Shown in pieces: positions 7,104-55,665 of a stretch of 64,000 bases of DNA. Below the pieces are notes generated by a model. The model was not told the DNA's origin and searched no databases. It saw only the letters and a list, made by a program, of their open reading frames with translations. This stretch comes from a virus: positions 32,001-96,000 of IMG/VR virus record IMGVR_UViG_3300021420_000018; one strand, written 5' to 3'. The position numbers and the translations under genes were made by a program. Every line of letters starts with the position of its first letter. Positions within the stretch are counted from its first letter, which is position 1.

Positions 7104-7376
7104 TCAAAAACAGTGCCGGTTCGGCACCCCGGTCTTCCGCAGGATATTGGAGACGTGATATTTCACAGTCCGTTCCTTCATGCCCAGCCGCGCGGCGATG
7201 TTGATATTCATGAACCGCTGCTGCAACAAAGGCATGACTTCCTGCTCGGCTGGAGTTAACTTTGCGGCTTCGATCAAGTGCTTGGCGATCAGCTCTTTCA
7301 TTTTGGCGCGCACCGCGGTTAGTTCTTCAATCAGTTCGCGTTCCCGCTTCTCCAGCTCGTCGATCTCTGCCCACAT
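7104..7376 (-). CDS. LuxR-type HTH regulator
   Basis: LTPAEQEV...NINIAARLGMKERTVKYHVSNILRKTGV. Confidence 0.85.
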   Translation of the reverse strand: MWAEIDELEKRERELIEELTAVRAKMKELIAKHLIEAAKLTPAEQEVMPLLQQRFMNINIAARLGMKERTVKYHVSNILRKTGVPNRHCF

Positions 7377-7873
7377 TATTCGTCAAGACAGATTCTGCGC
7401 TTGGTAGCGAGCGGCATGAGCGGCCCGTCCGATGGCCGTTCCGGTTTAGATCCCAACCGCGACCGCGATGATCCTCGACCATTCTCCACGAAGGCTTCGT
7501 ACTGTTCGAGCAGCCTTAGGCGCTCTTCTTCCAGCGCGAGATATTGAGAGTTGACGAGCGTGTGGACATCCTCCAGCCTTGCGCGGGCTCTCGCTGCGTC
7601 GCCTTCGGGCAAAGGCGAGAGCCCAAGCATCTCGCGCGCTTCGTTTTGCGTGATGATCCCGCGGTCAAGCATGTGGCGCACCTGCTCGGGAGTCCACGGC
7701 TGCGGATAGATGCGATACGGCTCCCCACCGTTTGGAATAATAACGCCGTTGCTGCTGCTGCCAGCCGTGTCGATTGTCCATTGGCCGCTGTTTATGGCGC
7801 TGCCTCCACTCACTCCAGGATAGATTTCTGTCACGTTTGCGACAGTGAAGGCAGAAGAGGCAAGCGCGTCCAT
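7376..7873 (-). CDS. Mosaic hypothetical protein (portal-tail-like motif, DVHTLVNSQ, C-terminal KRRICLDE)
   Basis: SD GAGGAG upstream; motifs visible in translation. Confidence 0.6.
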   Translation of the reverse strand: MDALASSAFTVANVTEIYPGVSGGSAINSGQWTIDTAGSSSNGVIIPNGGEPYRIYPQPWTPEQVRHMLDRGIITQNEAREMLGLSPLPEGDAARARARLEDVHTLVNSQYLALEEERLRLLEQYEAFVENGRGSSRSRLGSKPERPSDGPLMPLATKRRICLDE

Positions 7874-8135
7874 GGTTATCTCCTCGCCGGCATTGTAACC
7901 GGCTTTTTACAAGATTCTATAAAACATTAAAATCACCGTGCGACAGGTTGTGCCGCAACCGATCCGGGCGGCGGCCACTTCGCGGCGCACTGATGATCTT
8001 CAGAACCGACCATACACAGAAACTCGCCGCACAACAGACACCGCCGATAGGCTGGCCTGTGGCAGTGCGAACAGCGCTTCGGACAATCCGCGGTCGAATG
8101 CGTTTTGCTGCGGCAGGCCACACACTGTTCTTTGC

Positions 8136-8774
8136 TCATAGCCACTCCAAAGCTTCTGTGGCCACGAGTTGCGATACTCGGGACACGCGCGGCTCGCCGT
8201 ATTCTTGTTCGAGCCTGCGCACGATCAAGCTCGCCTGATACGCATCCCAGGTGTAACCGATTCGCACGATCACTCGATAGGGATTCACACGAACTAGCTG
8301 CGCACCAGAATCGAGCAGCCTCCAGGTGAGGTCCATCAACTCGACAAACATAGCCGCATCGGATAAACGCTGGCGACGGATCTTGGCCGCCGCCCTTTTC
8401 TTTGCCTTGTCCTGCTGTTGCGCTTTTACCAGTAAAGCTTGCCGCTCATAAGCTCGCTCTTGTTCGGCCAGTTTGGCCTTTTCTTCTGCCAGCCTGTCCT
8501 GGTGGGCCTGGTACTCTTCCATGGCAGTGTTGAGCTGGGCGGTCAGCCGCTTGACGCGCTTAGGATCGAGCTCGAGTTCCACACCCAACCGATATTTTTC
8601 GCGACGCTCGCCATCCTCGCCGTACCCGTTATCCACAGCAAGATCCACCAAGCGGATCGGCTGCGGAAACGTTTCGGGAAACTCGTCATCTTGCGGAAAG
8701 GCGCGGCCGCACTCCTCAGCCTCAACACTGCGCGCGATCCGTTCGATGTCGATACGCTTCACTTCCGAACCCAC
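8136..8774 (-). CDS. Coiled-coil hypothetical protein
   Basis: SD GAGGA; overlaps neighbours. Confidence 0.6.
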   Translation of the reverse strand: MGSEVKRIDIERIARSVEAEECGRAFPQDDEFPETFPQPIRLVDLAVDNGYGEDGERREKYRLGVELELDPKRVKRLTAQLNTAMEEYQAHQDRLAEEKAKLAEQERAYERQALLVKAQQQDKAKKRAAAKIRRQRLSDAAMFVELMDLTWRLLDSGAQLVRVNPYRVIVRIGYTWDAYQASLIVRRLEQEYGEPRVSRVSQLVATEALEWL

Positions 8775-9018
8775 TCCTCAATCGCACGGTCGATCACAAC
8801 TTTGAGATCGGCGACGTCCGCGTGACGCTTGAGCCTATCCCACATATCCTCCTCGAGCGTCTTGCAGGCCCTGGCGATGGCTACGCGCAAGGCTTCGGGA
8901 ATAAATGTGGGCGGCCTCGACAAGTAGCCGGCACTGCCGATACTTTCGGCTGTGCCGCGAAGCGCCGCATTGTGCGCTTCAACCGTTTTTTGCTGCGCTT
9001 CCCTTGCTTTGTGTTCGC

Positions 9019-9444
9019 TCATAGTTTCCTTCCTGGCATGCAGTTGCGGATCGCGATCCACAGTTCCATGTCTACCGGCCAGAACTGTAGCGCCCCAAGG
9101 ACTGGACAAGGTTCGGCAAGCGGCCGGATATTTTCAAGCTTGAACGCGTACCGGCCTTCGTGATAGTCGCCCCACTTGCGTTCCGCATCGCTGATCTCCA
9201 GAGTCACCGCTTCAGTTGGCCGGCAGTCGGTAAGATCGCACACGCAGACGATCGCGCCAACCGGCAACTCTTTGGGAACGAGGCCTTCCTCCCGCGCAAA
9301 CTCTTTCGCCCAAACTGGAAAACCTTTCGATGCGTGAATCGCGACAGGCCCGCGGTAAAGCGTCAACCAGCTGCGCGTCTCCCAATGCTTCCAGCCAAGC
9401 GCGATCGCCGTCGCCCAAGGCTGCGTGAGTGATAGTCCTCTCAT
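9019..9444 (-). CDS. ASCH domain protein
   Basis: LSLTQPWATAI..G.KHWETRSW.T.YRGPVAIHASK, the canonical ASCH signature. Confidence 0.9.
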   Translation of the reverse strand: MRGLSLTQPWATAIALGWKHWETRSWLTLYRGPVAIHASKGFPVWAKEFAREEGLVPKELPVGAIVCVCDLTDCRPTEAVTLEISDAERKWGDYHEGRYAFKLENIRPLAEPCPVLGALQFWPVDMELWIAIRNCMPGRKL

Positions 9445-9995
9445 GCACTTTGCTTTGCGTGAAGCTCAGAGTTGAACCGGTCGCACTGATCGGCATTAAA
9501 GTGCGCCACATAAACCTTCACAGGCGGAACCGGAGGCGGGAACTTCGGAAGCGGTAACGGACCGATGCCAATCGTGCCCGACATCTCCCGGCACCATTTC
9601 GCATACCCGGGCGGCTGCAGATACCGCTTATAGGATTTGCTCGTTGCCTCAACTTCCCACCCTTCGCGCAAAAGCCGGATCGCGTCTTCCGGATGCACAC
9701 CGCCGCAGAAACTGCAGGTCCGCGGGGTCCAGTGCCACGGCCAGCGCGTAAATCCGCTGCCAGGCTTGATCCGGTTTTGGATCGAGCCAACCAGGTGCGC
9801 GACCCAACCCCACGTGGTCGTCTCCCAATGATCGGTATTCAGCGTGTACTCCCAAGGCCCGGGCTGAGTCATGCGTCTTCTGCAAGTTTGCTTGGCCTCG
9901 AAGTGTTTGGTGAACTGATTGGCAAACCACGCCGGCCGCAGCCAGATGTCGTAAGCCACGGCATTCCACCAGCGGCGCGGATAGATCCAGCTCAC
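9441..9995 (-). CDS. Hypothetical protein
   Basis: RTCSFCGGVHPED motif; 4-bp overlaps at both ends. Confidence 0.6.
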   Translation of the reverse strand: MSWIYPRRWWNAVAYDIWLRPAWFANQFTKHFEAKQTCRRRMTQPGPWEYTLNTDHWETTTWGWVAHLVGSIQNRIKPGSGFTRWPWHWTPRTCSFCGGVHPEDAIRLLREGWEVEATSKSYKRYLQPPGYAKWCREMSGTIGIGPLPLPKFPPPVPPVKVYVAHFNADQCDRFNSELHAKQSA

Positions 9996-10684
9996 AGCCG
10001 CACCCTTCGACTCTTGCCATGCATTTCGATCTGGTGGAACAACGAGAGCCGGTCGGCGATCCGGTCGTCCATCATTTCGGCGATCTTAGCCAGCGACCAG
10101 TTAGTCGTCACGATGGTTGGCTTTTTGGAACGCAGGCGCCGATCCAAAATCAACAGCAACGACCGGCGTTCGAAATCGCTCAAGCCTCCGGCGCCCACAT
10201 CGTCGAACACGGCAAAGTTTGGCACGCTGTAATACTCCAACTGCGTCGCTTCTTGTCCACTTCCCATCGCTGTGCGCAGATCCAGATAAAACTCGGCGCA
10301 AGAGAAAAATTTGACGACCTGGCGCGCCATAATGAAGCTGCGCGCCAAAGCTGCCGCGAGATAGGTTTTTCCAACACCGGTCTCGCCGGTGAGGAGCAGG
10401 CCATGGCCCGGGTGATCGCACCAAGCCAGAATCTCTTTTTGCATCTCAGGAGCAAAGGCTGTGAGCTCTGCTTTGGCGTGAAGGGGTCCCACCTCTTTCG
10501 CGGCGATCCGGCGTAAAGCGCAATCGCACATCTCCATCGCCTGCTGGTGAGCCGGAGCATCCTTCGGACGCCGGTAGCCAAGACCTTGGCAATCGGGACA
10601 ATCTTCAGACTTCGAATCGCTTGGGTTTCGGGTATTCTTTGCCCATTGGTCGAGGGACTGCCGCAGCCGATCGGTTAGTTCCAT
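9992..10684 (-). CDS. dnaC: DnaC/IstB-like helicase loader ATPase
   Basis: CPDC..G..CDC; Walker A GETGVGKT; Walker B AVFDDVG; PTIVTTN; DRIADRL; SD AAGGAGG before ATG 10684. Confidence 0.9.
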   Translation of the reverse strand: MELTDRLRQSLDQWAKNTRNPSDSKSEDCPDCQGLGYRRPKDAPAHQQAMEMCDCALRRIAAKEVGPLHAKAELTAFAPEMQKEILAWCDHPGHGLLLTGETGVGKTYLAAALARSFIMARQVVKFFSCAEFYLDLRTAMGSGQEATQLEYYSVPNFAVFDDVGAGGLSDFERRSLLLILDRRLRSKKPTIVTTNWSLAKIAEMMDDRIADRLSLFHQIEMHGKSRRVRL

Positions 10685-11396
10685 TTCGCCCTCCTTGAGG
10701 GATCTCGTCTTCCCAACGTCGCCCATTCAGGTAGGTGGTCGCATGAGGGATGTGCATCTTATCCTGCCATTGTTCGCAGCCTTCTCGGGCCACTACTCCA
10801 GCTCGAGCCGCCACTTGATCCGCATGGCTCAGCCGGTGCCAGGCAGCTTTTGCCTTCTTGCGATCTTCATGGCGCGGGTACTCCTGCCAGAACTGCTCGA
10901 ACTCCTCTTCGGTTTGGTCGGAAATCACACCCAACGCTTCTTGTGTTCTGTTCTGTTCTGTTCCCTTCTGTTCTGTTCCCTTCTGTACGGGACGCGTGCC
11001 TGACGCGTCGCCCTCGCGTGCCTCACGCGTGCCCCACGCGTCAACATGTTGATTCTCTGGTGGCTTAGGCAGAACACTGAGCGATTCACGATTATTTATG
11101 ACCTGGTGCTTCTTGAAGGTCGGAACATACCCAAAAACCTCGTCAGCGACGCGATATTGGACCACGAAACCACGCGTGCCCCACGCGTCAAGCACGCGTG
11201 AAAAGTCCACGTCATCGTAGGGCAGGATCATGGCTTTAAGGGCCCGGGGGCGCCAGTTGAATCGACCTTCCCGATCGCAACAGGTCAGCAGTCCGACGAA
11301 GGCGAGGCGTAGCGGCAGGTTGGTTTTAAGCTCCAGCTCATACATTTCCTCATGTCTAAAGAACTCAGGCTTGATTGTGCGAATCCGTTGCTGCAC
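10605..11396 (-). CDS. Phage replication initiator (O-like)
   Basis: RIRTIKPEFF...DREGRF...FKKHQ N-terminus; FEQFWQEYPRH..KKAKAAW...HATTYLNGRRWEDE C-terminus; precedes the DnaC-like gene. Confidence 0.88.
   Translation of the reverse strand: MQQRIRTIKPEFFRHEEMYELELKTNLPLRLAFVGLLTCCDREGRFNWRPRALKAMILPYDDVDFSRVLDAWGTRGFVVQYRVADEVFGYVPTFKKHQVINNRESLSVLPKPPENQHVDAWGTREAREGDASGTRPVQKGTEQKGTEQNRTQEALGVISDQTEEEFEQFWQEYPRHEDRKKAKAAWHRLSHADQVAARAGVVAREGCEQWQDKMHIPHATTYLNGRRWEDEIPQGGRNGTNRSAAAVPRPMGKEYPKPKRFEV
10941..11200. repeat. Probable replication origin: ACGCGTG iteron-like units and TTCTG/TTCCC pyrimidine repeats inside the initiator gene
   Basis: CACGCGTGCCCCACGCGTCAA at about 11024 and 11171; ~11-bp periodic ACGCGT units at about 10991-11045; (TTCTG)n at about 10945-10985. 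Confidence 0.65.
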
Positions 11397-12180: not shown

Positions 12181-12195
12181 TGGTGAGTGTGGGTG

Positions 12196-13775: not shown

Positions 13776-14186
13776 CTATTCGGAGGTGGGTGTTGCCGCG
13801 ACATCCAATGTTTTTGCTGCTCTCGCTGCAATCTCCGGAGGCAACGGCTCTTTGACCAAAACGATTTCGATCCTGCGATCCGCCGGCCCGATCTCAACAC
13901 GCTGCGCTGCTTTGCCATCCGTCGCTTCGCGCATCTCGCGCGCTGGACCAGGATGACCTTTCGTTACTGCTTCACGAATCAGACCAAGCGCAACTGCGTC
14001 GGCCATCAAAGAGTTTTCATTCAGCGGATGAAAAAATGCGCTCGCCTTTTTCAAAACGCGCAACAGTTGTGGGGGGATGGTCTCGTTTAGCTGCCGAACA
14101 TAAGCCTGGCGCAGCGCAGCAGCCGACTGGAGACCGGAGGGTCTTGAGTTGTTTGTATTTGCGACTCCGTTGGTTCTATTGGCCAC
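13776..14186 (-). CDS. terS: Probable terminase small subunit
   Basis: N.SRPSG...AVALGLIREAVTKGH...AREMREATDGKAAQRVEI pattern typical of TerS-like proteins; adjacent and divergent to terL; GTG start inferred. Confidence 0.55.
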   Translation of the reverse strand: MANRTNGVANTNNSRPSGLQSAAALRQAYVRQLNETIPPQLLRVLKKASAFFHPLNENSLMADAVALGLIREAVTKGHPGPAREMREATDGKAAQRVEIGPADRRIEIVLVKEPLPPEIAARAAKTLDVAATPTSE

Positions 14187-14292
14187 GTTTAGTTTCGCCG
14201 TCTCGTATAAGTGTAGTAATACCAGAGTCTTGGGTTTTCGCGCAAGTGGGGGATTCGCCAGTGTTCCGGGTTTGTGGTGTAATGATCGCGGA

Positions 14293-17052
14293 ATGAGTGA
14301 AGGGCAAGAACCGACCAAGCCGTTTGTGGTAGCAGCTCCGAAAGTAAAAGGGGGAGCGCCGCGAATATACTACCAGTGCACCAAGCATGTTTCTCATGCG
14401 TGGTCGTCGGACGACATGGAGACCGCGTATTGCTATCGGTGCAAGAAGACCCGGATGGAGTTATTGATTCCGGCGCCCACGATTGAAGAGGCCAGTAACG
14501 TAATCGATGATCTGGTAAAGGAAGCGCAGGGCGATCCGTGTCCGATCCATGTAAGGAATGTAGATGGATTTCCAGAACAGAAAGAGTTGGTGGAATCCGC
14601 GAGAAAACGAAAGATGGTGCGAGCGGGAAGACGTGGAGGGAAGACCACGAGTGCGGCGACTTTGACCGTGAATCACTTTGCCAAAGGGGGAAGGGTTTTG
14701 TATGCGGTGCCGGTGGTTGACCAACTGGAGAAGTGGTGGAAAGAAGTTTTATGGAGTCTGCGGGAACTGATCAATGCCGGGAGGGTATACAAGAACGAGA
14801 CCGAGCACGTGATTGAGTTCCGGGGGACCGACAACCGGATCAAGGGGAAGACGGCGTGGAATGCCGATACGCTCAGAGGTGACTGGTGCACGCTACTGGT
14901 TTTGGACGAATACCAGCTGATGGATGAGACGGCGTGGACCGAAGTGGGTCAGCCGATGATGATTGACAAAGACGGAGATGCGGTCTTGATTTACACGCCG
15001 CCGAGTTTAAGTTCGCGGTCGATCAGCAAAGCCGTGGACAAGCAGCATGCGTCCAAGATGTTCAAGCGGTGCTCGGCCGATCCGGAATGGCTGTGTTTGC
15101 ATTTTTCATCGAGGGCCAATCCGTTTCTGTCCAAAGAGGGAATCGATCGGGCCGAACGCAATATGAGCAAGCTCGCGTTCATCCAGGAGATTGAAGCCGT
15201 GGATACCGACGAAGTGCCGAATGCGTTGTGGACCAGAAAAGTGTTGGACGATTCCCGGGTGCTCGCGCCAACGGAATGGGACCGCAAAGAACGGAAGTTT
15301 GTGATACCGCCAGCGCTGAGGGCGAAATATCCGGAGGCGCCGGATGCGCCGGTATTTCCTGGCGGTTATCGCAGGATCGTGGTGGCCATTGACCCTTCGG
15401 GATCGACAACCACGGAAGTGGGGATTGTGGCGGCAGGAGAAGCGTTTGACGGTGAGTATTACATCCTGTTTGACGAATCGATGTTTGCGTCACGGCCAAA
15501 AGCGTGGGCGGGCCAATCGATCAGGCTTTATGAAAAATGCGGCGCTGACCGGATCGTGGCCGAACGGAACTTTGGCGGCGACATGGTGGAAGAGACCTTG
15601 AAGACCGTGGATGAGAATATTCCGTATAAAGACATTGTCTCGAGCCGCGGTAAGCTCGTTAGGGCCGAACCGGTGAGCTCGCTGTTTGAGCATAACCGCG
15701 CGCACATGGTTGGCGAGTTTCCGGAACTTGAAGATGAACTCGTGAGCTACACGGGAATGCCAGGTGAGCGCAGTCCTAATCGCCTGGACGCTTGCTTTGT
15801 AAAAGGCACGAAGGTGTTGACCAGGCGCGGGAACATCCCCATCGAAGCCGTTCGAGTTGGTGACTTTGCTTGGACGCGCCAAGGCTGGAAGCGAATCCTC
15901 AAAGCTGGAATCACATCAGCGCGAGCGCCGGTGACAACGCTCCAGTTAAGTGATCGTTCGATTACCGGAACAAGCTCTCACCCTATTTGGGCTATAGGCA
16001 AGGGATTCACAGCTATGGACGCATTGGTTTGTGGTGATACAATGCTGACGTGCCAAAGCGACAGCCGCAGCAAACTAAAGAGCGGCCCGAAACCATCTAT
16101 TTTCAAGGCATTCCGTACCACAGATATCCGGACAGCAAGCGCCGCAATCAACGCGTTTATTATACAGGCAGTAAGAATGGCCGAACTGTTATGTTGCACC
16201 AAGCCATCTGGGAATATCATCGTGGGCCGATTCCGAAAGGCTATCACGTACATCACGTCGACGATGACCCACTCCACAATGAGATTTCAAATTATGAATG
16301 CTTATCCCCGGCCGCGCACAACTCAAAGCTTCGGGGCAAATCCAGCGATCGGAGGCGACGCCATTTGGCAGACGTTCGACCGCTTGCATCGGAATGGCAC
16401 TCCAGTCCGGAAGGAATCGCTTGGCACCGCAACCACGGTAAACGCACTTGGCGTGGCCGCAAGCCGCAGCCAAAAGGGAAATGTTTGTCGTGCAATGAGC
16501 CCATCAAAGGATTCAAAGATAAACGCTTCTGCAGCCGAGCCTGCATGCAGACAGCCTATAGAAAAAACCACACATATCAGTGTTTGGTCTTGTGCCCCAT
16601 TTGCGGCAATCCGTTCTGGCAAAGCAAATATCGGCCACGACCGAAGTTTTGCTCCCGTCTATGTGCTTGGGAAGCACGACGCAGGGAGCGCACCGGTTTA
16701 CAATTTGGAAGTTGAGGACGCACACGAATATTTCGCCAACGGGATCCTTGTTCACAACTGCGTGTTCGCGATCATGGAGCTGTTAGGGCCCGGTGCGCTC
16801 AGCCTGGTCGAACTGTACAAGCAGGGTGGAATGGAGAAATACATGCTGCCCAAAACAACTGCCGCGACGTCCTTGGCCAGTGTGGCCACAAACAGCAAAA
16901 CTCCAAAATGTCCGCAGTGCCATCAGATTACGCTGCAAAATAACGTGGCCGGCCAAATCCGCTGCGGACATTGCGGATTCCAGCGGCCGATACCAGGGCA
17001 GCCCAACGTGCAGCCGATTGGCGGCCGGCGCGCGATCGATCTCCGCAAGTAA
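14293..17052 (+). CDS. terL: Terminase large subunit with intein
   Basis: Walker A AGRRGGKT; Walker B LLVLDEY; YTP motif; nuclease VAIDPSG, IVAERNFGG, SPNRLDA; Zn-ribbons at both termini; ATG 14293 chosen as start. Confidence 0.95.
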   Translation: MSEGQEPTKPFVVAAPKVKGGAPRIYYQCTKHVSHAWSSDDMETAYCYRCKKTRMELLIPAPTIEEASNVIDDLVKEAQGDPCPIHVRNVDGFPEQKELVESARKRKMVRAGRRGGKTTSAATLTVNHFAKGGRVLYAVPVVDQLEKWWKEVLWSLRELINAGRVYKNETEHVIEFRGTDNRIKGKTAWNADTLRGDWCTLLVLDEYQLMDETAWTEVGQPMMIDKDGDAVLIYTPPSLSSRSISKAVDKQHASKMFKRCSADPEWLCLHFSSRANPFLSKEGIDRAERNMSKLAFIQEIEAVDTDEVPNALWTRKVLDDSRVLAPTEWDRKERKFVIPPALRAKYPEAPDAPVFPGGYRRIVVAIDPSGSTTTEVGIVAAGEAFDGEYYILFDESMFASRPKAWAGQSIRLYEKCGADRIVAERNFGGDMVEETLKTVDENIPYKDIVSSRGKLVRAEPVSSLFEHNRAHMVGEFPELEDELVSYTGMPGERSPNRLDACFVKGTKVLTRRGNIPIEAVRVGDFAWTRQGWKRILKAGITSARAPVTTLQLSDRSITGTSSHPIWAIGKGFTAMDALVCGDTMLTCQSDSRSKLKSGPKPSIFKAFRTTDIRTASAAINAFIIQAVRMAELLCCTKPSGNIIVGRFRKAITYITSTMTHSTMRFQIMNAYPRPRTTQSFGANPAIGGDAIWQTFDRLHRNGTPVRKESLGTATTVNALGVAASRSQKGNVCRAMSPSKDSKINASAAEPACRQPIEKTTHISVWSCAPFAAIRSGKANIGHDRSFAPVYVLGKHDAGSAPVYNLEVEDAHEYFANGILVHNCVFAIMELLGPGALSLVELYKQGGMEKYMLPKTTAATSLASVATNSKTPKCPQCHQITLQNNVAGQIRCGHCGFQRPIPGQPNVQPIGGRRAIDLRK
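16035..16043 (+). promoter_or_regulatory. Extended -10 (TGaTACAAT) for a leaderless HNH transcript
   Basis: TG-n-TACAAT with a 6-nt gap before GTG 16050. Confidence 0.55.
16050..16715 (+). CDS. HNH homing endonuclease with C-terminal Zn-ribbons, overprinted inside the TerL intein in another frame
   Basis: LHQAIWEYHRGPIPKGYHVHHVDDDPLHNEISNYECLSPAAH; CLSC..FCSRAC; CPICG..FCSRLC. Confidence 0.9.
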   Translation: MPKRQPQQTKERPETIYFQGIPYHRYPDSKRRNQRVYYTGSKNGRTVMLHQAIWEYHRGPIPKGYHVHHVDDDPLHNEISNYECLSPAAHNSKLRGKSSDRRRRHLADVRPLASEWHSSPEGIAWHRNHGKRTWRGRKPQPKGKCLSCNEPIKGFKDKRFCSRACMQTAYRKNHTYQCLVLCPICGNPFWQSKYRPRPKFCSRLCAWEARRRERTGLQFGS

Positions 17053-39172: not shown

Positions 39173-39178
39173 TTTGTA

Positions 39179-39394: not shown

Positions 39395-39398
39395 GGCT

Positions 39399-44510: not shown

Positions 44511-45355
44511 TAGGCCGCTTTGCCTTTCTTGGCCTTCGCCTGCTTCGCCGGCGCCGCGGGAGTGTCCAGCTTGATCGTGCGGCGCGGCTTCGGCGTGGCC
44601 AAGGAAGCAGACAGCGCTGCCATGAGATCTTGCACCGGTTGTGCTGTTACCGCGCTGACCGGCGTGGGTGCCGCGATGGACTTGTCGATCTTGGAAGCGA
44701 TCAACGTGTTGAGCCGTTGGTAGTAGCCATCTTCGAAAGTTTCGGGATTGAACTCAGAGTCCAGGCTCTCCGCAAGCTGCCTCGCCAGCTTCAACTCCGA
44801 TGCTGTGAGCGAGACCGCCTGCAGATCATCGAACTCTGCGACCTTGGCTATCTCAGTCTGATACCACAGGTAGTGAAGAATGAGACCGTTGCCTTGGGGC
44901 CGCAAGAGGATCATGTTCTCGCGGCCTGACTTGGTAAGCTGCGCGATTGCCACGCGGCCGGTGTCGGTCAGTGTCTTGACGAGTAGGCCGTAGGCTTTCA
45001 TGCCGACATCTTCCGGCAACAGATAAAACGATTCGGCGAGATAGAGCGAATCGACGTCCGACCACTTCACGCATTCGGTGATCTCCAGCACTTTGCCGCT
45101 CGCCGGCGTGATGCCTTCGATCTCTTCGTCGGTGATCTCGACGATTCGGCCATCGGTTTGGTAGCCCCTGAAGATTTCGGATGCTTCCAACATCTTGGAA
45201 CAGGCAGGGCAGTATTTCGGAGATTTTACTGCGCCTTTGCACTCCGTGTGGAACGTGTGCAGCTCGACCCGCTTATCCCGGGCTGCGACATTGAGATAGA
45301 CGGGGATATTCAGTAGCCCAAACGAAAGATGTCCCTTCCAGACTTTGTGAGCCAT
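44510..45355 (-). CDS. ku: Ku (NHEJ end-binding) protein
   Basis: VWKGHLSFGLLNIPV; YLAESFYLLP; AYGLL; ELKLARQL; FEDGY; DLMAALSASL. Confidence 0.93.
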   Translation of the reverse strand: MAHKVWKGHLSFGLLNIPVYLNVAARDKRVELHTFHTECKGAVKSPKYCPACSKMLEASEIFRGYQTDGRIVEITDEEIEGITPASGKVLEITECVKWSDVDSLYLAESFYLLPEDVGMKAYGLLVKTLTDTGRVAIAQLTKSGRENMILLRPQGNGLILHYLWYQTEIAKVAEFDDLQAVSLTASELKLARQLAESLDSEFNPETFEDGYYQRLNTLIASKIDKSIAAPTPVSAVTAQPVQDLMAALSASLATPKPRRTIKLDTPAAPAKQAKAKKGKAA

Positions 45356-45981: not shown

Positions 45982-46010
45982 ATTATAGGTTAGCTACTAC
46001 GTTATGTCAA
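45982..46010 (-). promoter_or_regulatory. Perfect sigma70 consensus promoter TTGACA-17-TATAAT
   Basis: Exact consensus read directly from the sequence. Confidence 0.9.
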
Positions 46011-47074
46011 TCGAACGTGATCCTGCGCTTGGGTTGCAGCACCACGAGTGTATCGAGCGCAGCTTTGATGTTTTCAAAGCCCTGCCTTACGTGTTCCCGC
46101 AGTTCATCATTGGTTCGCAGAGTCACAGCGTTGTGGCCGCCGATCAGGTCTTTCGCCCGATCGACCAGAACCTTCATCTGTAGATCGTTGCCGATGTTGC
46201 GCGGGTCAAAGGTCTCCAAGAACTGCTGGAACTTCGTGATTGAGCCGTCTTGGAATGTTTTCATTCGGCCTTCTTCGTTGGGCGCAAGTCTGTCTGCCAG
46301 GTGATTGACGAACTCCGACATGTGCCCGCGGAGCAGTTGTCTGTGAACTTGGGTCAGCTCAGCCCAACTCTCTTGCGCCTTTCTGCGTTCCTCGTCGGCC
46401 ACCTCTTTACTGATGCCGGCAAGGTTCGGTGCGCTATCGACGTAGACGAATCGCCAATCGACATGGAACGCTGCCATCAGCTCGTCCCTGGTCATGAAGT
46501 CGTCGTCGTTGAACAGAGGACCAAGCCGTTTGGCGGATTCTTCTTTGATCTCGTCGTAACGCTTGCCCAAAGACTTGATGAAAGGCTGGCAGGCCGCGAT
46601 GCCTTCCTTGAGTGTGGTGTTGACTTGCTCGACAAACGCGGTCGGCATGATATAGACGCCGCGCTTGATCTGCGATGGAAGAGCCAGGCGTTCGACGTAC
46701 TGGCGCATTTTGCCGTACCGCGACATGATCTCGTCCAACTCTTCGGCTTCGATCAGGCGCTTGGTCAGGTGCAACCATTCCTTATCGACTTGGGCCTCTT
46801 TTGCTCTGCCGCGGGTGTCTCTCTCGACATTGACATCGATGTTCGCGGTGTCTACTTTGCGGCGATTGCCGGTGCCGTGAAACGTGAGGACCATGACGAC
46901 TGATTTCGCCATGATGTCTTTCGGCGAAACAAACTCCGGATTCTTCGGCAGTTTGATCGCCGGCAACGGCGGCAACGGTTTGATTTTCTTTTTTGGCGGT
47001 AGCGGATTTGCCCTGCGAGCCCGGATCGTTTCCCATGCCTTCTTTGCTGCGGCGGTACGTGCTGCTGCTGTCAT
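46007..47074 (-). CDS. DUF3150-like protein
   Basis: LP...GVYIMP...AKRLGPLFN.DD....EL...F..DW...F..FLETF...NI.ND; start motif before ATG 47074. Confidence 0.7.
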   Translation of the reverse strand: MTAAARTAAAKKAWETIRARRANPLPPKKKIKPLPPLPAIKLPKNPEFVSPKDIMAKSVVMVLTFHGTGNRRKVDTANIDVNVERDTRGRAKEAQVDKEWLHLTKRLIEAEELDEIMSRYGKMRQYVERLALPSQIKRGVYIMPTAFVEQVNTTLKEGIAACQPFIKSLGKRYDEIKEESAKRLGPLFNDDDFMTRDELMAAFHVDWRFVYVDSAPNLAGISKEVADEERRKAQESWAELTQVHRQLLRGHMSEFVNHLADRLAPNEEGRMKTFQDGSITKFQQFLETFDPRNIGNDLQMKVLVDRAKDLIGGHNAVTLRTNDELREHVRQGFENIKAALDTLVVLQPKRRITFD

Positions 47075-47120
47075 TGTGATTCTCCCTTTGCCGGATTGTC
47101 GGCTCCGGCTGCCGATGTTG

Positions 47121-47522
47121 TTACCGGCCCTGTCCGCGCAGAATAGCGGCATCGAGCCTGGGTATGAGCGAATCGATCTCCTGCTTCGCTCGCATTGCAT
47201 CGTTGGCTACAGGGACTCCGTAATCGCCATCTTTGACATCCACATAGCCTTCGATCAGTTCGTTGATTCTCTCCATCGCCTCAGACGCCTGAATCATGGC
47301 TGTGAGCATGATCTGGTGAGTCTCAGCATCTGAGCCAAGGGAAAGGCTGAGGACCAATCGCAAAGCATCCTCGAATCGCTTCGATGGCTCACCAAGAATG
47401 ACAAACTCTTGAGGAGCCAAGTTGTAGCGATCAAGAAACGCGCGAATGATTCGTCGCGCTTCCGTTCGCTGTCCTGCCAGTTCTGTTAGATCGATCATGC
47501 GAACAGCCTCTTTTCGAGCCAC
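47121..47522 (-). CDS. Hypothetical protein
   Basis: Operonic within the AAA cluster. Confidence 0.5.
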   Translation of the reverse strand: MARKEAVRMIDLTELAGQRTEARRIIRAFLDRYNLAPQEFVILGEPSKRFEDALRLVLSLSLGSDAETHQIMLTAMIQASEAMERINELIEGYVDVKDGDYGVPVANDAMRAKQEIDSLIPRLDAAILRGQGR

Positions 47523-47797
47523 TCGTGTTCGGCTTTGAGCGCTGCGGCTCTGGTTGTGAACGGGCCCAGGATGGGGTTATCGACGTCCAGGTTGAACTGC
47601 TTGATCGCCGGCGACATGTCTGCTATCCAGCGGCCGGATGGCGTTGGCTCAACCAAGCTAGCTCTGGTGATCTCCATCGACGCGTCCGGGAATACGTCCC
47701 ATAGCGCGTCGTCGTAGATCGCCAGGATCGTGCCGTTAGGCGCGACTCTTAACTTGAACGTGCTCTGGCTTTTCATACATCTCCGACGTTTCAACAT
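47495..47797 (-). CDS. Hypothetical protein of the AAA/DUF1257 cluster
   Basis: ITRASLVEPT..G.WIADMSP....LGPFTTRAAAL.AE.EWL. Confidence 0.6.
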   Translation of the reverse strand: MLKRRRCMKSQSTFKLRVAPNGTILAIYDDALWDVFPDASMEITRASLVEPTPSGRWIADMSPAIKQFNLDVDNPILGPFTTRAAALKAEHEWLEKRLFA

Positions 47798-47942
47798 CGC
47801 TCACCTTCTTCCCGAGTCCTTCTTCGAACTCGCGAGTTAGTTCTTTGCACGACCGGCCCTTCACGCCCTTCACGGTAACTTTGGCGTTGCCGTCAGGCGC
47901 GATGCGGATGATCACCGTCTCTTCCATGTCAATCCTCCTCAA
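47736..47942 (-). CDS. DUF2997 family protein
   Basis: IRIAPDG...VTVKGVKGRSCKELT..FEEGLG....T.EMY. Confidence 0.8.
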   Translation of the reverse strand: MRRIDMEETVIIRIAPDGNAKVTVKGVKGRSCKELTREFEEGLGKKVSDVETSEMYEKPEHVQVKSRA

Positions 47943-48342
47943 GATTGATCTTGCGTTTTGGATTCAACTCCAGCGTCGGTACTTCCTGATCCTCGCGGAT
48001 GCGTTGCAGTTCCGCTTGTTGTCTGAGCCCTTTTCTGATGCGATCCACTTCCGCTGCCGTGGCAGGACGTAGACGTTCGGCGGCTTGATAGAACTCAAAC
48101 ACAGCCCATACGTGGTCGCACCACAGGTTCGACGATATGGACTGCATTCCATTGATCTGGCCATTCGGACAATCGCACCCCCAGCGGTCGTCCGGGCTTA
48201 AGGTGACGGTCCACCAACAGCTACTGTTGGCGAAGGCTTTCCATTTACGTTGGCCGAACTCGTTGACGTAGACAGGTGGGTAGAAACGACCGTCAACGGT
48301 ACGTGCCGCGACAAACTCAACTCGCGTGATTGTGTATTGCAA
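47929..48342 (-). CDS. SWIM Zn-finger protein
   Basis: WGCDCP...WCDHVWAV; ends PKRKINLEED. Confidence 0.7.
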   Translation of the reverse strand: MQYTITRVEFVAARTVDGRFYPPVYVNEFGQRKWKAFANSSCWWTVTLSPDDRWGCDCPNGQINGMQSISSNLWCDHVWAVFEFYQAAERLRPATAAEVDRIRKGLRQQAELQRIREDQEVPTLELNPKRKINLEED

Positions 48343-48360: not shown

Positions 48361-48768
48361 TTAAGTCGTGCGGGGACGAGTCGCAGTGACCGTGACGTAG
48401 CCCTGCTCGTCGGTTGTCGTCTTAACCTTGAAGCCTTTCTTCTTCCACTGCCTCTTGGTGTATTCGGTGGTGTAGGCTTGCTTCAGTCTCATCGCATCCT
48501 GCCCAACGAAGTCTTGAAGACCGTAGCCTCGATTGTAAAAATCAGTCTCCAGGCGGAAGCGGCCCGGGCGACCGGTTTCAGAGACGCCGATTTCCATCGC
48601 TTGACTGTTGTTAGGGACGCGAATCGCGTGCTGGCAGCGGCCGTTCTGTCCGGCGAACTGCCTGAACGTTTTCTGGCCCTTGATGTACTCCAATCCAAGG
48701 CTCTTTGCCGCTTCTTCAAGAGCGCCAAGATCGGTGACTTCAAGTTCTATCTGACTGGTGTGGCTCAT
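48361..48768 (-). CDS. DUF1257 (Ycf35-like) protein
   Basis: MSHTSQIELEVTDLGALEEAAKSLG...EIG...LKQAY...GF. Confidence 0.8.
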   Translation of the reverse strand: MSHTSQIELEVTDLGALEEAAKSLGLEYIKGQKTFRQFAGQNGRCQHAIRVPNNSQAMEIGVSETGRPGRFRLETDFYNRGYGLQDFVGQDAMRLKQAYTTEYTKRQWKKKGFKVKTTTDEQGYVTVTATRPRTT

Positions 48769-48778
48769 CTGTTGCCTC

Positions 48779-49147
48779 CTATTCGAGTGTGATTTTTCTT
48801 TTTGGCCTAAGAACTATTTCCGGTTCCTGCGGCTTCCTGCTTTCGGCACGATGATTAACTTCCTTTATGAGCTGCGCCTTTTTCCCTTCTCCTTGTCTGT
48901 GAAAGATGAACGCTTGAGCAATGTGTTCGCATGGTGGCGGAACCCATGCAGGCGTCCCTAGCGCGTCTCGTGATGCCGGCGTCCAGGAAGTCTCTTGGCA
49001 ACTCCCTGTGCCGCGTGCACCACAATCACACTGCCAAGTCTTGTCCGGGTTGATGCGGGCGATGGCTGGTTCGACATCGCCCCCACTGATTCTGCTGACA
49101 GCAAACTCTACGGTGCCGTCAGGATGTCGCCATACTCGTAGGATCAT
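48779..49147 (-). CDS. SWIM-like Zn-finger protein
   Basis: WQCDC...PCEHI; ends PKRKITLE. Confidence 0.6.
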   Translation of the reverse strand: MILRVWRHPDGTVEFAVSRISGGDVEPAIARINPDKTWQCDCGARGTGSCQETSWTPASRDALGTPAWVPPPCEHIAQAFIFHRQGEGKKAQLIKEVNHRAESRKPQEPEIVLRPKRKITLE

Positions 49148-49150: not shown

Positions 49151-49489
49151 TCAATCCAGGTGGATGAGACGCCGCGTTTGGAGAACGAAGTACGGCTGTG
49201 GTGGCGGCGCGACTGCCGGTGCTCCAGGCCGCCGCCGCGTGGCTGATTGGAATGCGTGCTCTTGTGATGGAGTCGTGCGGGTTTTGTCCACAGGCTCCAT
49301 CAGCTTAACCTGCTCGATGTGCCAACAATCGGCACGCGGCCGCTGTTTGTTGAAGATCCAGCCGCCACAGCTGCATCCCCAGGTGCCGTCTACTTTCATG
49401 GCGACGACGCGTTTTTTGTCAGGCTCGCTCCGGCTTTCGACTTCCCACCGCGCGATCCACACACCGTTTGCTTCGAGTTTGTTGGGCAT
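49151..49489 (-). CDS. SWIM Zn-finger protein
   Basis: WEVESRS...WGCSCGGWIF...CWHI; ends TRRLIHLD. Confidence 0.75.
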   Translation of the reverse strand: MPNKLEANGVWIARWEVESRSEPDKKRVVAMKVDGTWGCSCGGWIFNKQRPRADCWHIEQVKLMEPVDKTRTTPSQEHAFQSATRRRPGAPAVAPPPQPYFVLQTRRLIHLD

Positions 49490-49491: not shown

Positions 49492-51078
49492 TCAGTTCAC
49501 CTGGCCTTTCGGCGTGCTTCCGCCGCTGCCAGAGGGATCGATCTTGCGACGTCCCTTCACGGCAGCGACCACGCCGACGATCTCGACTTGCGGTTCAGGC
49601 TCGAGCCCTTCCGGCACGTGGTACAGGCCGGAGTAGCTCGCCGAAATGAACTTCTGATCGGCTTGACGGCGCAGATCATCCAGCTTGTCGCGGGAAGAAA
49701 TGGACACCGGCACAATGTACTTCGCCGCTTCCTCGATCGAAGTGCTCAGCACATGCGCGTTGTAACAGCAGTTGCGGATTTCGGCAGGCGTCCAGCCCGT
49801 ATCGTCAGGGCGCTTGCCTTTCACATTCCACTTCGCTTCGTACAAGTTCCAGGCCGCTTCCTTCTCAGGCTTGGTCGGCAGATCGAAGAAGAAGGTGCCC
49901 GAGCGGAACCGGCGCCGCATCTCCGGAGGCAGGCTGTCGAAACGATTGCACGTCGCGATGTAGTAGACCTGGCCCTGGCTGACGGCATGCACCACCTTGA
50001 GCGCGGTGCGGATGTTCTCGCCGGACTGCCCCACAAGCGAGCCCTTCATCCCGGCGAGATCGAAGAAGATCAGCGGCACTTGCCATTCGTTGGCAATCGC
50101 TTTCGCAAGCAGCGTCTTGCCAGAGCCGGCAACGCCCAGGAACGCGCTGCCTTCGGCTTCGGTCTCTTCCATGTCGGTCAGGAGTGCGCCAATCATTTCG
50201 GTTGTCGTGTCTCCTGTGCCTACGGCGCCGAAGTTGGCCATGTGCTTGTCGATCTCATCGATGAATACGACGGCACGGCGTCTGAGAGGACCCTGTCCGC
50301 GGCGCAGATGGAATCCCTTGCAGTTTCCAAGGCCGATCACGCTGCTGAACGAATCCTTTCCGCGCCAGATGCTCAGGCCTGGCGTCTGTTCGATCTGTTG
50401 TCGTTTGCGTTCCCACAACGCTTCGATATCGAGACCAGCTTTGGTGATGCTCATCGCGCAGACTTGCTCTGCCGGAAACGCAGCGAGGCCGGAAAGCGCT
50501 TCGACCGCACGCTCCACGACTTCGGCCTTTGGCTTCTCTTCGGCTTTGATCAGATTCGCCGCAAGATAGGTTTCGCCCACTATGCCTGCCAGTTGCGCAG
50601 CATCGGGAAGCGGCTCGTCCAGCACCAAAACATCTTGCGCGAGTTCTGGCGGCAGAGTAATCGCTGGACCCACCATGACCAGCGTGCGGGTATCCTCTTT
50701 GAACTTGTCGCGCAAGTTCCAGACAGCTTGGACCACTCGGCTGTCGTGGAAATAGCGATTCAGGTTGGCCATGAAGACGACCGTGCCGGCTGGAATGGCG
50801 TTCTTCGGCGCGATCTTCTTGAGCATGTCGAGAGGATCTTCCAGACGGTTGGCATCTTCGCCGGATCCAGTGATGAGTGACTTCGCGACATTGCGGCCCC
50901 GCGGATCGTTGCAGCCAACAACGCCGTTGACGATATCCCACAGGATCATCGGCGACTCGCCATGCGTCCGGTCGTTCACGATGTTGGCGATGGTCGCTGC
51001 ATAATCGGCGGTCCGTACAAAAATGAGCGGAGTCGAAACCTTGCGTGCTGCTTTGAATGTTTCAAGGAAAGTTGGCAT
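49492..51078 (-). CDS. Ycf46-like AAA+ ATPase
   Basis: Degenerate N-terminal AAA module (LPPELA..LDEPLPD); GVAGSGKT; GSLVGQSGEN; ATCN..LPPEMRRRF..FFFDLP; GWTPAEI. Confidence 0.85.
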   Translation of the reverse strand: MPTFLETFKAARKVSTPLIFVRTADYAATIANIVNDRTHGESPMILWDIVNGVVGCNDPRGRNVAKSLITGSGEDANRLEDPLDMLKKIAPKNAIPAGTVVFMANLNRYFHDSRVVQAVWNLRDKFKEDTRTLVMVGPAITLPPELAQDVLVLDEPLPDAAQLAGIVGETYLAANLIKAEEKPKAEVVERAVEALSGLAAFPAEQVCAMSITKAGLDIEALWERKRQQIEQTPGLSIWRGKDSFSSVIGLGNCKGFHLRRGQGPLRRRAVVFIDEIDKHMANFGAVGTGDTTTEMIGALLTDMEETEAEGSAFLGVAGSGKTLLAKAIANEWQVPLIFFDLAGMKGSLVGQSGENIRTALKVVHAVSQGQVYYIATCNRFDSLPPEMRRRFRSGTFFFDLPTKPEKEAAWNLYEAKWNVKGKRPDDTGWTPAEIRNCCYNAHVLSTSIEEAAKYIVPVSISSRDKLDDLRRQADQKFISASYSGLYHVPEGLEPEPQVEIVGVVAAVKGRRKIDPSGSGGSTPKGQVN

Positions 51079-53984: not shown

Positions 53985-54050
53985 TCTGTTTCCCCTTTCT
54001 CTCTAACTGCGCTTGCTAGCATTTGGGTCGTTCTTATACTAGCGTTCAGC

Positions 54051-54079
54051 ATTATAGCTTAGTCGGCACGATAGGTCAA
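54051..54079 (-). promoter_or_regulatory. Promoter TTGACC-17-TATAAT
   Basis: Near consensus; conserved spacer motif. Confidence 0.8.
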
Positions 54080-54161
54080 GCACGAATAACCGTTTACTGT
54101 GTCGGGCAAGGTGGGGCTAGTGGCGAGAAAGGTACGGCTATTGACTAGGCGAAAAGGCCTG

Positions 54162-54812
54162 CTATCGCTGCTGGACTTCTGGCTCATCCTCAGCGTTGCG
54201 CGACTGTTGGACCGAGATCTCCGCTTCCGCTTCGATCTTGGCTAAGGGAGCCTGGATTACGTCGAACCGATTGAAGGGAACGCCGAGCAGGATCCAAATC
54301 ATTTTCGGCGGCGGCTGGAGATCGATCTTGTCGATTCGTTTGCGGCCTTTGCCTTCGTTCAAAAGATTGTCCAACTCAATCGGCTCGAATAGATCGTTCA
54401 GCTCTACATCCGTAGTGGCCAGCACTTCCTTGTCCCAGGCGAGATCGACTTCCTGCGTCCTGTTCTCGAACAGGGCGAGCTCACGCGCCTTCTTATCCTC
54501 GCCCTCAAGCTTCAGGTCTTTGCGGCGAACGGCAACGAGCGTATCGCCATCGGAGTCAACAACCATGACGCGTTTGTAGCCCAACGACTTCGCCTGCTCA
54601 AGGGTGGCGTTACCGCTGATCACGCGGTTATCGGCATCGAGCAAAATCGAACGGCCGGCACCAAACTTCTTGAGCGAAGTCTTGAGCATCTTCTTACCGC
54701 GGGGCGTGTGTTTGTTGGGATTGTTCCGGTCCGGCTTCAAGTCTTCGATTGGTTCGAGTGCGATCTCGGCCATCTCATCAGAACTTCCGTTTTTTGCTGC
54801 CATTTCTGACAT
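54162..54812 (-). CDS. ParB/Srx-like N-terminal domain protein
   Basis: LKPDRNNPNKH...SLKKFGAGRSILLD...ISGN...ENRTQE..LAWD. Confidence 0.75.
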   Translation of the reverse strand: MSEMAAKNGSSDEMAEIALEPIEDLKPDRNNPNKHTPRGKKMLKTSLKKFGAGRSILLDADNRVISGNATLEQAKSLGYKRVMVVDSDGDTLVAVRRKDLKLEGEDKKARELALFENRTQEVDLAWDKEVLATTDVELNDLFEPIELDNLLNEGKGRKRIDKIDLQPPPKMIWILLGVPFNRFDVIQAPLAKIEAEAEISVQQSRNAEDEPEVQQR

Positions 54813-55038
54813 CTCCGTTCTTCGATCGCTCGACTTCCGACAAAAGATAAGTGCGCCGCAGGCGCCGAATGGTGCATACGGAAACGCTGAATCGTGTGGC
54901 AACTGCTTCGGCGGTGACATCCGCCACGAATAAAAGATGGAGTATTTGTGCGCGCTGCGCCTCGGAGAAATGCGGCTTGGGACCAGACAAACCGGCCATG
55001 TCTCTGGAGTGTACTGGTTAACCATTGGCTGAGTCAAA

Positions 55039-55665
55039 CTAGTCCAAAGAAATGGCTCGCCGGGGCCTCGCGAAAATGGGCTCTTTTCGCTGGGTTCCAA
55101 TGGTCTGATAGCCGCTCTCTTCAATGGTCTTGCACGCCTGGCACAGAGGACGCTGATAGGCTGAATCAAAAAGCTGGCCGCAGTTCGTGCACCGCAGCTT
55201 GAATGTCTGTGTCGGCTCAACCTGGACGCCATCGGTATTGAATCCGCGGTGTCGTAGCTCGGCGCCTACGCTCTCAAACAGCCAGTTGAACTGAGTCCTA
55301 TCAATAGGGCAGTTTGAGAAAAACCATAGCAGGTAATCATTGGGTAGCACGGAGACTTGTGCGCCGCGGAACTTACCGAGTGGCATGATCGCTCTGCCGT
55401 GTCTGCTCATGGCGTCTTGTGCGGCGGCGTGCAGGACGCGGCCGATTCGTTCCCGTTCGAATCCGGTGAGGATTTTAGCATCGCGAATACCGTGCCGTTT
55501 ACGTAAGTGGTGTTTCAATCCGCAGGAGGCCCATCCGACACTCGTATACCAGCGCAGGATTCTGGCCGGCTCGCATCTGAAACACCTGGCGTAATCTCTT
55601 TCTTCGTTCCGTGAAAGATGGAAGCTGCCGAATAGCTCGCCATCATAGCCGGTGTTATTTGGCAT
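55039..55665 (-). CDS. DUF3820-like protein with Zn-ribbon, ending in PRRAISLD
   Basis: MPLGKFRG..VS.LP.DYLLW; CTNC...CQAC. Confidence 0.65.
   Translation of the reverse strand: MPNNTGYDGELFGSFHLSRNEERDYARCFRCEPARILRWYTSVGWASCGLKHHLRKRHGIRDAKILTGFERERIGRVLHAAAQDAMSRHGRAIMPLGKFRGAQVSVLPNDYLLWFFSNCPIDRTQFNWLFESVGAELRHRGFNTDGVQVEPTQTFKLRCTNCGQLFDSAYQRPLCQACKTIEESGYQTIGTQRKEPIFARPRRAISLD

Follow-up and report, generated by a model that had tools for sequence, protein, structure and literature searches.

A recurrent C-terminal tail on unrelated phage proteins

Here, we analyzed a window of 64,000 nucleotides (IMG/VR record IMGVR_UViG_3300021420_000018), comprising bases 32001–96000 of the 123.7-kb contig C17 of a large soil phage. 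The window encodes an AAA+ ATPase together with proteins of the three families DUF1257, DUF2997 and DUF3150; the four genes lie close together, all on the minus strand, and are referred to as the module in the following. The DUF3150 protein and a number of unrelated proteins of this phage end in the same short peptide, a basic pair followed by two alternating hydrophobic residues. Our analysis suggests that this tail stems from DUF3150 and probably serves as a short linear docking motif, all copies of which would bind a single receptor site encoded by the module.

Within the module (window coordinates), the AAA+ ATPase (49492–51078) carries GRRKID, a short form of the motif, in a disordered C-terminal tail, and the DUF3150-family protein (46007–47200, with a likely start at 47074 giving 355 amino acids) ends in VVLQPKRRITFD. 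No tail is found on the DUF1257 protein (48361–48768; Pfam PF06868, E 8e-6), which is the sole DUF1257 protein in the genome, or on the DUF2997 protein (47736–47942; Pfam PF11211, E 1e-13). Three further minus-strand genes of this region encode small tailed proteins: a SWIM-finger protein of 112 amino acids (49151–49489), which ends in YFVLQTRRLIHLD, a Cys-rich protein of 122 amino acids (48779–49147), which ends in EIVLRPKRKITLE, and a second SWIM-finger protein of 137 amino acids (47929–48342; weak Pfam SWIM match, E 0.0015), which ends in LELNPKRKINLEED. The orthologs of the latter two in phage G001, the closest relative of C17, end in RPRRKITFDK and RPRRIINLK, respectively, and 15/19 phmmer matches to the 112-residue family in related loci end in the tail.

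Besides these, the tail is found on proteins encoded across the window. In Ku (44510–45355, minus strand; Pfam Ku, E 2e-33), PKPRRTIKLD directly follows DLMAALSASL and is itself followed by a Lys-rich end. The terminase large subunit (TerL), which contains a Hint intein (14149–17052, plus strand), ends in PIGGRRAIDLRK. Four other minus-strand genes encode a 208-residue protein with a QSregVF_b-like stretch (55039–55665), ending in PIFARPRRAISLD; a 71-residue coiled-coil protein located between the ligase-like and clamp-loader-like AAA genes (39179–39394), ending in LEVRPRRLIHLE; a 149-residue protein adjoining DnaB (29244–29693), ending in LKSRRAIRL, for which no Pfam or PHROG family was matched; and a 165-residue protein (7376–7873), ending in LMPLATKRRICLDE, for which no Pfam family was matched. 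The G005 ortholog of the coiled-coil protein ends in RPRRGIRLEP, and the end of the corresponding open reading frame (ORF) in G001 differs. Three carriers add to those listed in the initial annotation of this DNA. Two of them lie upstream of the window, namely a protein with the tail GGRRLIDLE (C17 24749–25333) and a 317-residue protein with the tail FRRRITLP (C17 28896–29849). The third is a weak candidate on a DnaC/IstB-like helicase loader (9992–10726, minus strand; Pfam IstB_IS21, E 7e-18), where V replaces I in the terminal HGKSRRVRL.

The initial annotation had listed nine C-terminal copies (at 7376, 29244, 39179, 46007, 47929, 48779, 49151, 55039 and on TerL), and all of them were recovered when the regular expression [KR][KR].I.[LF] was run on the last 15 amino acids of all six-frame stop-to-stop ORFs of at least 40 amino acids in the window (10/969 ORFs); the tenth match (63510–63746) is a shadow frame that falls within a longer gene. 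The near-terminal copies that it had reported were likewise found 18 residues (PRRTIKLD in Ku) and 17 residues (GRRKID in the AAA+ ATPase) before the end. Among ORFs of at least 60 amino acids, C-terminal matches occur in 12/1033 on C17 versus 34/58,713 on the remaining 47 contigs (odds ratio 20, Fisher p = 1.5e-11), and the proposed enrichment over background thus amounts to approximately 20-fold. The motif also shows a strong terminal bias: 12 of the 25 matches anywhere in C17 ORFs are located within 3 residues of the end, and terminal positions make up 4.3% of all positions (binomial p = 1.2e-10). As the copies use six Arg and five Leu codons, conservation is at the level of the peptide. 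The carriers are indeed unrelated, since 14 of these proteins compared without their last 14 amino acids gave no pairwise BLASTP match below E 0.004, and the only likeness was a weak one among the three SWIM-type proteins (E 0.004–0.09). The description of the tail as phage-wide, however, was overstated: it is found on about 12–13 of roughly 170 genes, no gene for the phage capsid or tail structure is among them, and TerL is the sole packaging gene.

Most copies share an upstream extension, consisting of a hydrophobic pair 5–7 residues before the motif and a subsequent Pro or Gly, as seen in VVLQPKRRITFD, FVLQTRRLIHLD, IVLRPKRKITLE and PIFARPRRAISLD. The tail is therefore better described as a unit of about 14 residues, comprising two hydrophobic residues, x-x-P-[KR]-R-x-[IF]-x-[LF] and, at the C-terminus or close to it, one to three acidic residues.

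DUF3150 as the source of the tail

The window protein gave no match in a direct Pfam scan at E ≤ 0.01; its assignment to DUF3150 is supported by precomputed PF11348 annotations on 3/21 homologs, by tblastn matches to plasmid genes annotated as DUF3150 and by its best fold match in BFVD, which is a DUF3150 protein (E 7e-13, TM 0.65/0.77). All 21 database homologs (21/21), down to 30% identity, retain the tail as K-P-x-R-x-I-x-L-x-D or a close variant, and the consensus across loci reads D-[RK]-P-x-R-[KR]-[IF]-x-[FL]-[DE]-[DE]-E. The second hydrophobic residue, which is L or F in the window copies, is F or L in 71/91 distinct DUF3150 tails. The tail Arg (R350 in the window protein) is the only invariant column in an alignment of 64 DUF3150 sequences (A7), and R-x-hydrophobic-x-hydrophobic occurs in the last 26 amino acids of 116/135 DUF3150 ORFs from AAA+-anchored loci. 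Judging from these sequences, the tail is the ancestral, near-universal C-terminus of DUF3150, far older and more widespread than the present phage.

The AlphaFold2 (AF2) model describes DUF3150 as a long helical protein (predicted local distance difference test score, pLDDT, 87) without a fold match in the PDB, in which the tail (residues 344–355) is extended and of low confidence. The host genome contains no other DUF1257 and no other DUF3150 protein, and DUF3150 is present in just 2/60 related genomes, which argues that the module travels with mobile elements.

The module across phages, plasmids and genomes

Using an alignment of the AAA+ ATPase as bait, we found 118 relatives in a viral collection and at least 392 in a genome collection, and 80 loci of each were analyzed. 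These 160 loci span phage, plasmid and genome sequences and belong to Acidobacteriota, Armatimonadota, Planctomycetota and other phyla. Profile searches detected DUF3150 in 133, DUF1257 in 115 and DUF2997 in 112 of them, always on the strand of the AAA+ gene. All three partners were detected in 96/160 loci, and DUF2997 directly follows DUF1257 in 96/96 of these, with the order of the other blocks varying. A position-specific scoring matrix (PSSM) built from the DUF3150 tails scored at least 9 bits at the end of 97/133 DUF3150 proteins, but in 0/115 DUF1257 and 0/112 DUF2997 proteins. Among the other six-frame ORFs of the loci (n = 29,496), 34 reach at least 12 bits within 6 amino acids of the end, compared with about 0.37 per internal position; they include small proteins adjoining the AAA+ gene, AAA+ proteins and SWIM-type neighbors.

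Loci seemingly devoid of DUF1257 and DUF2997 mostly hold divergent copies, with a best DUF1257 E of ≤ 0.05 in 9/19, and for this reason they could not separate the candidate receptors discussed below. In five such loci that were inspected, a small His-rich ORF follows a DUF1257-like ORF. The DUF2997-like partner of these divergent modules (L044, L066, L076, L084, L087) has a His-rich end, e.g. HSHGHDHAHHHHHH, which hints at metal binding. The first two residues of DUF1257 proteins (alignment A5) are invariably Met-Ser, in most cases as part of M-S-H. For DUF1257, no structural relative that is solved or named was found, and neither DUF1257 nor DUF2997 has informative relatives; scans with NCBIfam and PADLOC gave matches at the level of the Walker A motif for the AAA+ ATPase and none for the other module proteins. 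According to an excerpt of a previous study (PMC4284462), DUF1257 is Ycf35, which in cyanobacteria lies beside DUF2997 and a ferredoxin gene.

One example outside of phages is a plasmid of Candidatus Manganitrophus (Nitrospirota), for which the NCBI annotation lists a cassette of AAA ATPase, DUF1257, DUF2997 and DUF3150. Its DUF3150 protein ends in RPKRKIRIL plus nine residues, and an 847-residue protein encoded 1.8 kb downstream of the DUF3150 gene ends in AAKRKIRLSPGS. On this plasmid (CP114559; L038 20532–24843), the module is located a few kb from ParB and PRTRC-system genes, with a JAB-domain gene upstream.

A Cdc48-like ATPase whose tail co-varies with that of DUF3150

The Pfam AAA match of the ATPase covers residues 313–363 only, and a single Walker A motif (GVAGSGKT) is seen. 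Its AF2 model is confident (pLDDT 90), with the last 27 residues (502–528) disordered, and Foldseek aligned approximately 560–600 columns to the D1-D2 domains of Cdc48, p97, Rix7 and NVL (E ~1e-11). The ATPase is thus predicted to consist of two tandem AAA-fold domains of the Cdc48/p97 type, a degenerate D1-like N-terminal half and an active C-terminal half. It starts directly with the D1-like half, without a p97-type N domain, and has one recognizable nucleotide-binding site instead of two; its score in the NCBIfam CDC48 model is 23.7 bits versus a cut-off of 803. Lacking the N domain and a second Walker A, the protein is related in fold to Cdc48 but is not its ortholog.

In the phage AAA+ proteins, the Walker-B strand and the following helix (VVFIDEIDK..., residues ~269–305) precede the Walker-A loop (~315), whereas the Walker-B segment of the Manganitrophus plasmid homolog stands in its usual place after Walker A. 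This looks like the relocation of a segment within the AAA fold; the AF2 model is confident all the same.

The tail Arg of the ATPase (R511) is conserved in at least 90% of a 64-sequence alignment, with a hydrophobic residue two places further on in 60/63 tails, and in several loci the ATPase ends in a full tail (GRKIQIDD, ARAIQLEE, HRKIDLN, ARTISLEE). Many of these proteins, in the window and among the 64 homologs (A4), end in V-N or S-x-N (QVN, PVN, SVN, PSVN, SLN), which may be a second terminal docking element.

Across 63 loci, the tails of AAA+ and DUF3150 proteins of the same locus are more similar than shuffled pairs (0.356 versus 0.227; 0/5000 shuffles reach the observed value). Matched pairs are, for example, RAFR with RKFRF in Bryobacterales and RKFE with RKFDLE, and in loci of Planctomycetota both tails read R-x-[IV]-x-R-x-P, the acidic end being replaced by a basic one. 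This joint drift toward one variant suggests that both tails co-evolve with one common binding site. Columns that swap charge between loci with acidic and basic tails number 2 in AAA+, 1 in DUF1257 and 0 in DUF2997; on average, the I/F state of the tail shares the most mutual information with DUF1257 (0.36 versus 0.24 for AAA+), and one column has Ala in the presence of F-tails and Trp in the presence of I-tails. Both comparisons are confounded by ancestry and serve as leads only.

Retention of the tail in related phages

Phage genes are found along the entire contig C17, whose GC content is 0.548 versus approximately 0.587 across the 6.85-Mb genome. The nearest named phage is the Tunturiibacter phage Tunturi_3, which has an acidobacterial host, and the closest relative, G001, is a complete 165-kb IMG/VR phage with terminal repeats. 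An alignment of 11 sequences (A2) was the query for related loci, and the genomes of G001, G002 and G005, which were scanned as a whole, contain about 5 to 11 plausible tails each. Considering the orthologs in C17 and these three phages, the tail is retained in 4/4 for DUF3150 and for the 112-residue SWIM-finger protein, and in 3/4 for the 208-residue protein (tagged in G001 and G005 besides C17, with a variant in G002), for Ku (C17, G001 and G005, missing in G002) and for TerL (kept in G001 and G002 besides C17, degenerate in G005). The 317-residue protein occurs in three genomes and carries the motif in each of them, with short extensions after the motif in G001 and G002.

The initial annotation had proposed to look for loss of the tail in phages without the AAA+ gene cluster, and for TerL this gave a divided answer. 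While a search with the single sequence returned TerL itself alone, an alignment of three sequences retrieved 80 homologs, most of them without the Zn-ribbon C-terminal extension; among those with the extension, only G001 and G002 have the full tail. The TerLs of two complete phages without a detectable AAA+ gene end in GGRSLVK and GGRGMLK. Hence, the full tail is absent but a shorter G-G-R ... K remains, and this fits loss of the tail as well as partial inheritance. G-G-R ... K thus characterizes this branch of TerLs, with the full pattern only in carriers of the module, and the tail of TerL may in part be a trait of the TerL family, making it the least certain carrier. The Hint/intein insert at residues ~549–870 is absent from the G001 ortholog (599 amino acids).

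A proposed docking motif for a receptor within the module

How could these observations be combined? In the mechanism that we consider probable, the docking peptide would derive from the flexible C-terminal tail of DUF3150, whose AAA+ partner ends in the shorter R-[KR]-hydrophobic form. Every tail would bind one receptor site encoded by the module, possibly as an added beta-strand, as suggested by the alternating hydrophobic residues. The candidate receptor of first choice is the DUF1257-DUF2997 pair, followed by the AAA+ ring and, in third place, by self-assembly of DUF3150; the DUF1257-DUF2997 pair is favored because it is always present and never tagged, and because the ATPase itself bears a version of the tail. 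Grafting of the tail onto the SWIM-finger proteins, Ku, the DnaC-like loader, possibly TerL and several other proteins would have taken place in the lineage of this phage and would bring these proteins to the AAA+ machine, as its adaptors or its clients. The unstructured tails of DUF3150 and AAA+ in the AF2 models are as expected for a docking peptide. A prediction of the four-chain complex (AAA+ 1–500, DUF1257, DUF2997 and DUF3150 300–355, with alignments of 63–64 rows) yielded ipSAE values of 0.11 and 0.14 relative to a mark of 0.32, in a design unlike the calibration of the tool, and counts neither in favor of binding nor against it.

The initial annotation had already proposed a single hub and named the AAA+/DUF1257/DUF2997 machine first. 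This part agrees with the linkage to the module, the co-variation and the untagged DUF1257 and DUF2997 proteins, but the ancestry of the tail in DUF3150 was missed.

Several points weigh against a docking motif addressed to the module. The association of tail and module is partly built in, since the loci were gathered with AAA+ as bait, and the shuffle test of co-variation ignores shared ancestry. The module-free controls comprise the host chromosome and two complete phages with related TerLs, only these, and TerL has a basic end as well as a shorter counterpart in module-free phages. On the 160 loci, the loose expression R.[IL].[LF] gives a small terminal excess (57 and 48 at the peak positions versus ~33 in the background), and under the strict pattern, close relatives of this phage account for most of the tails outside DUF3150. 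Moreover, the PSSM built from DUF3150 tails of other loci reaches at least 10 bits in 5/1033 ORFs of C17 versus 31/58,713 elsewhere and fits the phage's own tails poorly. Finally, Tunturi_3 has the AAA+ ATPase and DUF3150 with a variant tail, but only one other candidate tail was seen there.

Alternative readings and comparison with known systems

The strongest alternative, though clearly less likely than docking on a module receptor, is that the tail is a tag read directly by the pore or D1-like domain of the Cdc48/p97-like ATPase, and that tagged proteins are unfolded, extracted from DNA complexes or passed on to a protease. The confidently predicted two-domain fold, the position of the tags on flexible ends, the three or four tagged genes adjoining the AAA+ gene and the fact that several carriers (Ku, the DnaC-like loader, TerL) form stable DNA-bound assemblies speak for such a tag. 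However, the ATPase bears its own version of the tail in at least 90% of 64 homologs, which would be odd for a substrate tag, no protease gene was seen in the module, and DUF3150, a constant partner, would have to be a constant substrate.

Cdc48/p97 is one of the closest known systems. Its cofactors dock via the VCP-interacting motif (VIM), the Arg-rich VCP-binding motif (VBM) and the SHP box, and the C-terminal tail of p97 binds PUB/PUL cofactors. The phage system resembles this arrangement in its two-domain AAA+ protein of that fold, in a partly Arg-rich peptide on many unrelated partners and in the flexible C-terminal tail of the ATPase. It differs in that the ATPase has a degenerate AAA-like first half and no p97-type N domain, that the module contains no ubiquitin-type genes, and that the motif has a different sequence, is placed at the C-terminus and is also found on the ATPase itself. 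In proteasomal ATPases, the hydrophobic-Tyr-X (HbYX) motif, and in HslU the C-terminus that binds HslV, are C-terminal tails docking AAA+ rings on partner complexes. Here, too, a short hydrophobic-containing tail is conserved across the family on a flexible AAA+ C-terminus, but the same tail occurs on non-ATPase proteins, no peptidase is recognizable, and DUF1257 and DUF2997 lack a known fold or function; hydrophobic-Tyr-X as the last three residues was found neither among the window tails nor among the 64 AAA+ ends. ClpX reads tags such as ssrA and the C-terminus of MuA, which is rich in Arg and Lys. Like these, the phage tail is a basic-plus-hydrophobic C-terminal peptide, and that of MuA marks a DNA-bound complex for an AAA+ remodeler; unlike these, it has acidic ends, tolerates extensions of up to ~18 amino acids (Ku) and is tied to a dedicated module rather than host ClpX.

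Remodeling or removal of DNA-bound assemblies by the machine of the module is an attractive guess. A bolder version of it, which we regard as rather doubtful, would make the module a Cdc48-like "segregase" of mobile elements, which has its own peptide address code and pulls ring-shaped or tightly DNA-bound proteins off DNA at the right time; its clients would be Ku, the helicase loader, the terminase and the SWIM-finger DNA binders, brought in via a DUF1257-DUF2997 adaptor. Eukaryotic p97 extracts Ku from DNA, and the phage module would be a ubiquitin-free counterpart.

It appears unlikely that the tail docks phage proteins on a hub of the host, be it the alpha-crystallin groove of a small heat-shock protein (sHSP) through mimicry of the IxI motif, the beta clamp or ClpX. 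In favor of such a hub, a large part of the carriers act in DNA replication or repair, and the one HSP20 protein of the host has the C-terminal extension KPKQIKVNIG, i.e. basic residues followed by I-x-V. The IxI/V tail of sHSPs binds the beta4-beta8 groove of alpha-crystallin, and the likeness to it that the initial annotation had pointed out is real at the level of sequence: both have basic residues and then an alternating hydrophobic pair in a C-terminal extension and are likely bound as a strand. Yet the second hydrophobic residue of the phage motif is L or F instead of I/V, the motif includes an invariant Arg and an acidic end, no alpha-crystallin (HSP20) match was found among the carrier proteins scanned against Pfam, and the tail tracks the mobile module. 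Similarly, bacterial clamp motifs (QL[SD]LF or the QLxLxL type), the PCNA-interacting-peptide (PIP) box and the cargo-loading peptides of encapsulins are short peptides by which many unrelated proteins are addressed to one hub or shell, as could be the case here with a terminal peptide; in contrast to clamp motifs, the phage tail has no Gln at the first place, no QLxLF-type pattern and no aromatic pair, but an invariant Arg and an acidic end. In Acidobacteriota, Armatimonadota and Planctomycetota and on a Nitrospirota plasmid, the motif accompanies the module, which makes a host hub less likely. The joint change of AAA+ and DUF3150 tails within a locus also points to a receptor that travels along, and the tail is found on module proteins of integrated elements that are not obviously phages. 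Since plasmids and integrated elements carry the module too, a capsid is an unlikely target as well.

DUF3150 itself might be the receptor, with the tail binding the next DUF3150 subunit head to tail to form a scaffold, which other tagged proteins join at the same site. No residue of DUF3150 other than the tail Arg is invariant, and a long helical protein without a solved relative would be compatible with this; nevertheless, we consider such a scaffold improbable, as a groove for the tail is not apparent in the AF2 monomer, where the tail is unstructured, and the constant presence of untagged DUF1257 and DUF2997 would stay unexplained. Lastly, chance, amino-acid composition or a DNA-level signal at gene ends can practically be dismissed: Arg-rich ends are common in GC-rich shadow frames, with 34 background matches in the rest of the genome and 1/10 window matches being such a frame, but the 20-fold enrichment (p = 1.5e-11), the strong terminal bias, the differing codons and the conservation at 30% identity speak clearly against it.

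Further features of the phage

C17 encodes DnaB, ParB, a clamp-loader-like AAA protein, an ATP-dependent-ligase-like protein and Ku. The clamp-loader-like AAA and ligase-like genes (38035–40496 of the window, minus strand) are close to that of Ku (44510–45355, minus strand), and the three are a phage-borne end-joining or repair set, which is conserved in G001, G002 and G005. The portal protein of 1256 amino acids (window 3–3446, minus strand, continuing to C17 35446) has a LAGLIDADG-type insert and a C-terminal histidine-phosphatase (His_Phos_1) domain. Upstream of the window and likewise on the minus strand, a fusion of a Mu-F-like head protein and a 2H phosphoesterase is encoded at C17 30288–31676 (L010 12288–13676); its 2H phosphoesterase part matches anti-CBASS Acb1 just below threshold (26 bits versus a cut-off of 27). 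A Ro60/TROVE protein with a vWA domain (C17 23059–24687, L010 5059–6687, minus strand; E 4e-57) is also present, and the tail-bearing gene at C17 24749–25333 is the next one downstream of it. A short adenylosuccinate-synthetase-like gene (379 amino acids; C17 25765–26904, L010 7765–8904, minus strand) could be a putative PurZ-type enzyme for 2-aminoadenine DNA.

Implications for the module and its phages

Full-text literature searches (supplements being outside their scope) found no functional account of DUF3150, DUF1257, DUF2997 or the tail. The principle of a shared terminal peptide that directs many proteins to a single hub is known from clamp-binding motifs, p97 cofactor motifs and protease tags. 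The motif, the module and the spread of the tail to proteins of replication, repair and packaging, however, appear to be new.

The tail provides an experimental handle, as it predicts who binds whom among three domains of unknown function and an unusual AAA+ protein, and it lists the likely clients of the module in this phage. The module is common, with 118 relatives of the ATPase in the viral and at least 392 in the genome collection. If the segregase reading were true, it would provide the first function for DUF3150, DUF1257 (Ycf35) and DUF2997. As DUF1257 is Ycf35 of cyanobacteria and plastids (PMC4284462), any function found here could carry over to them.

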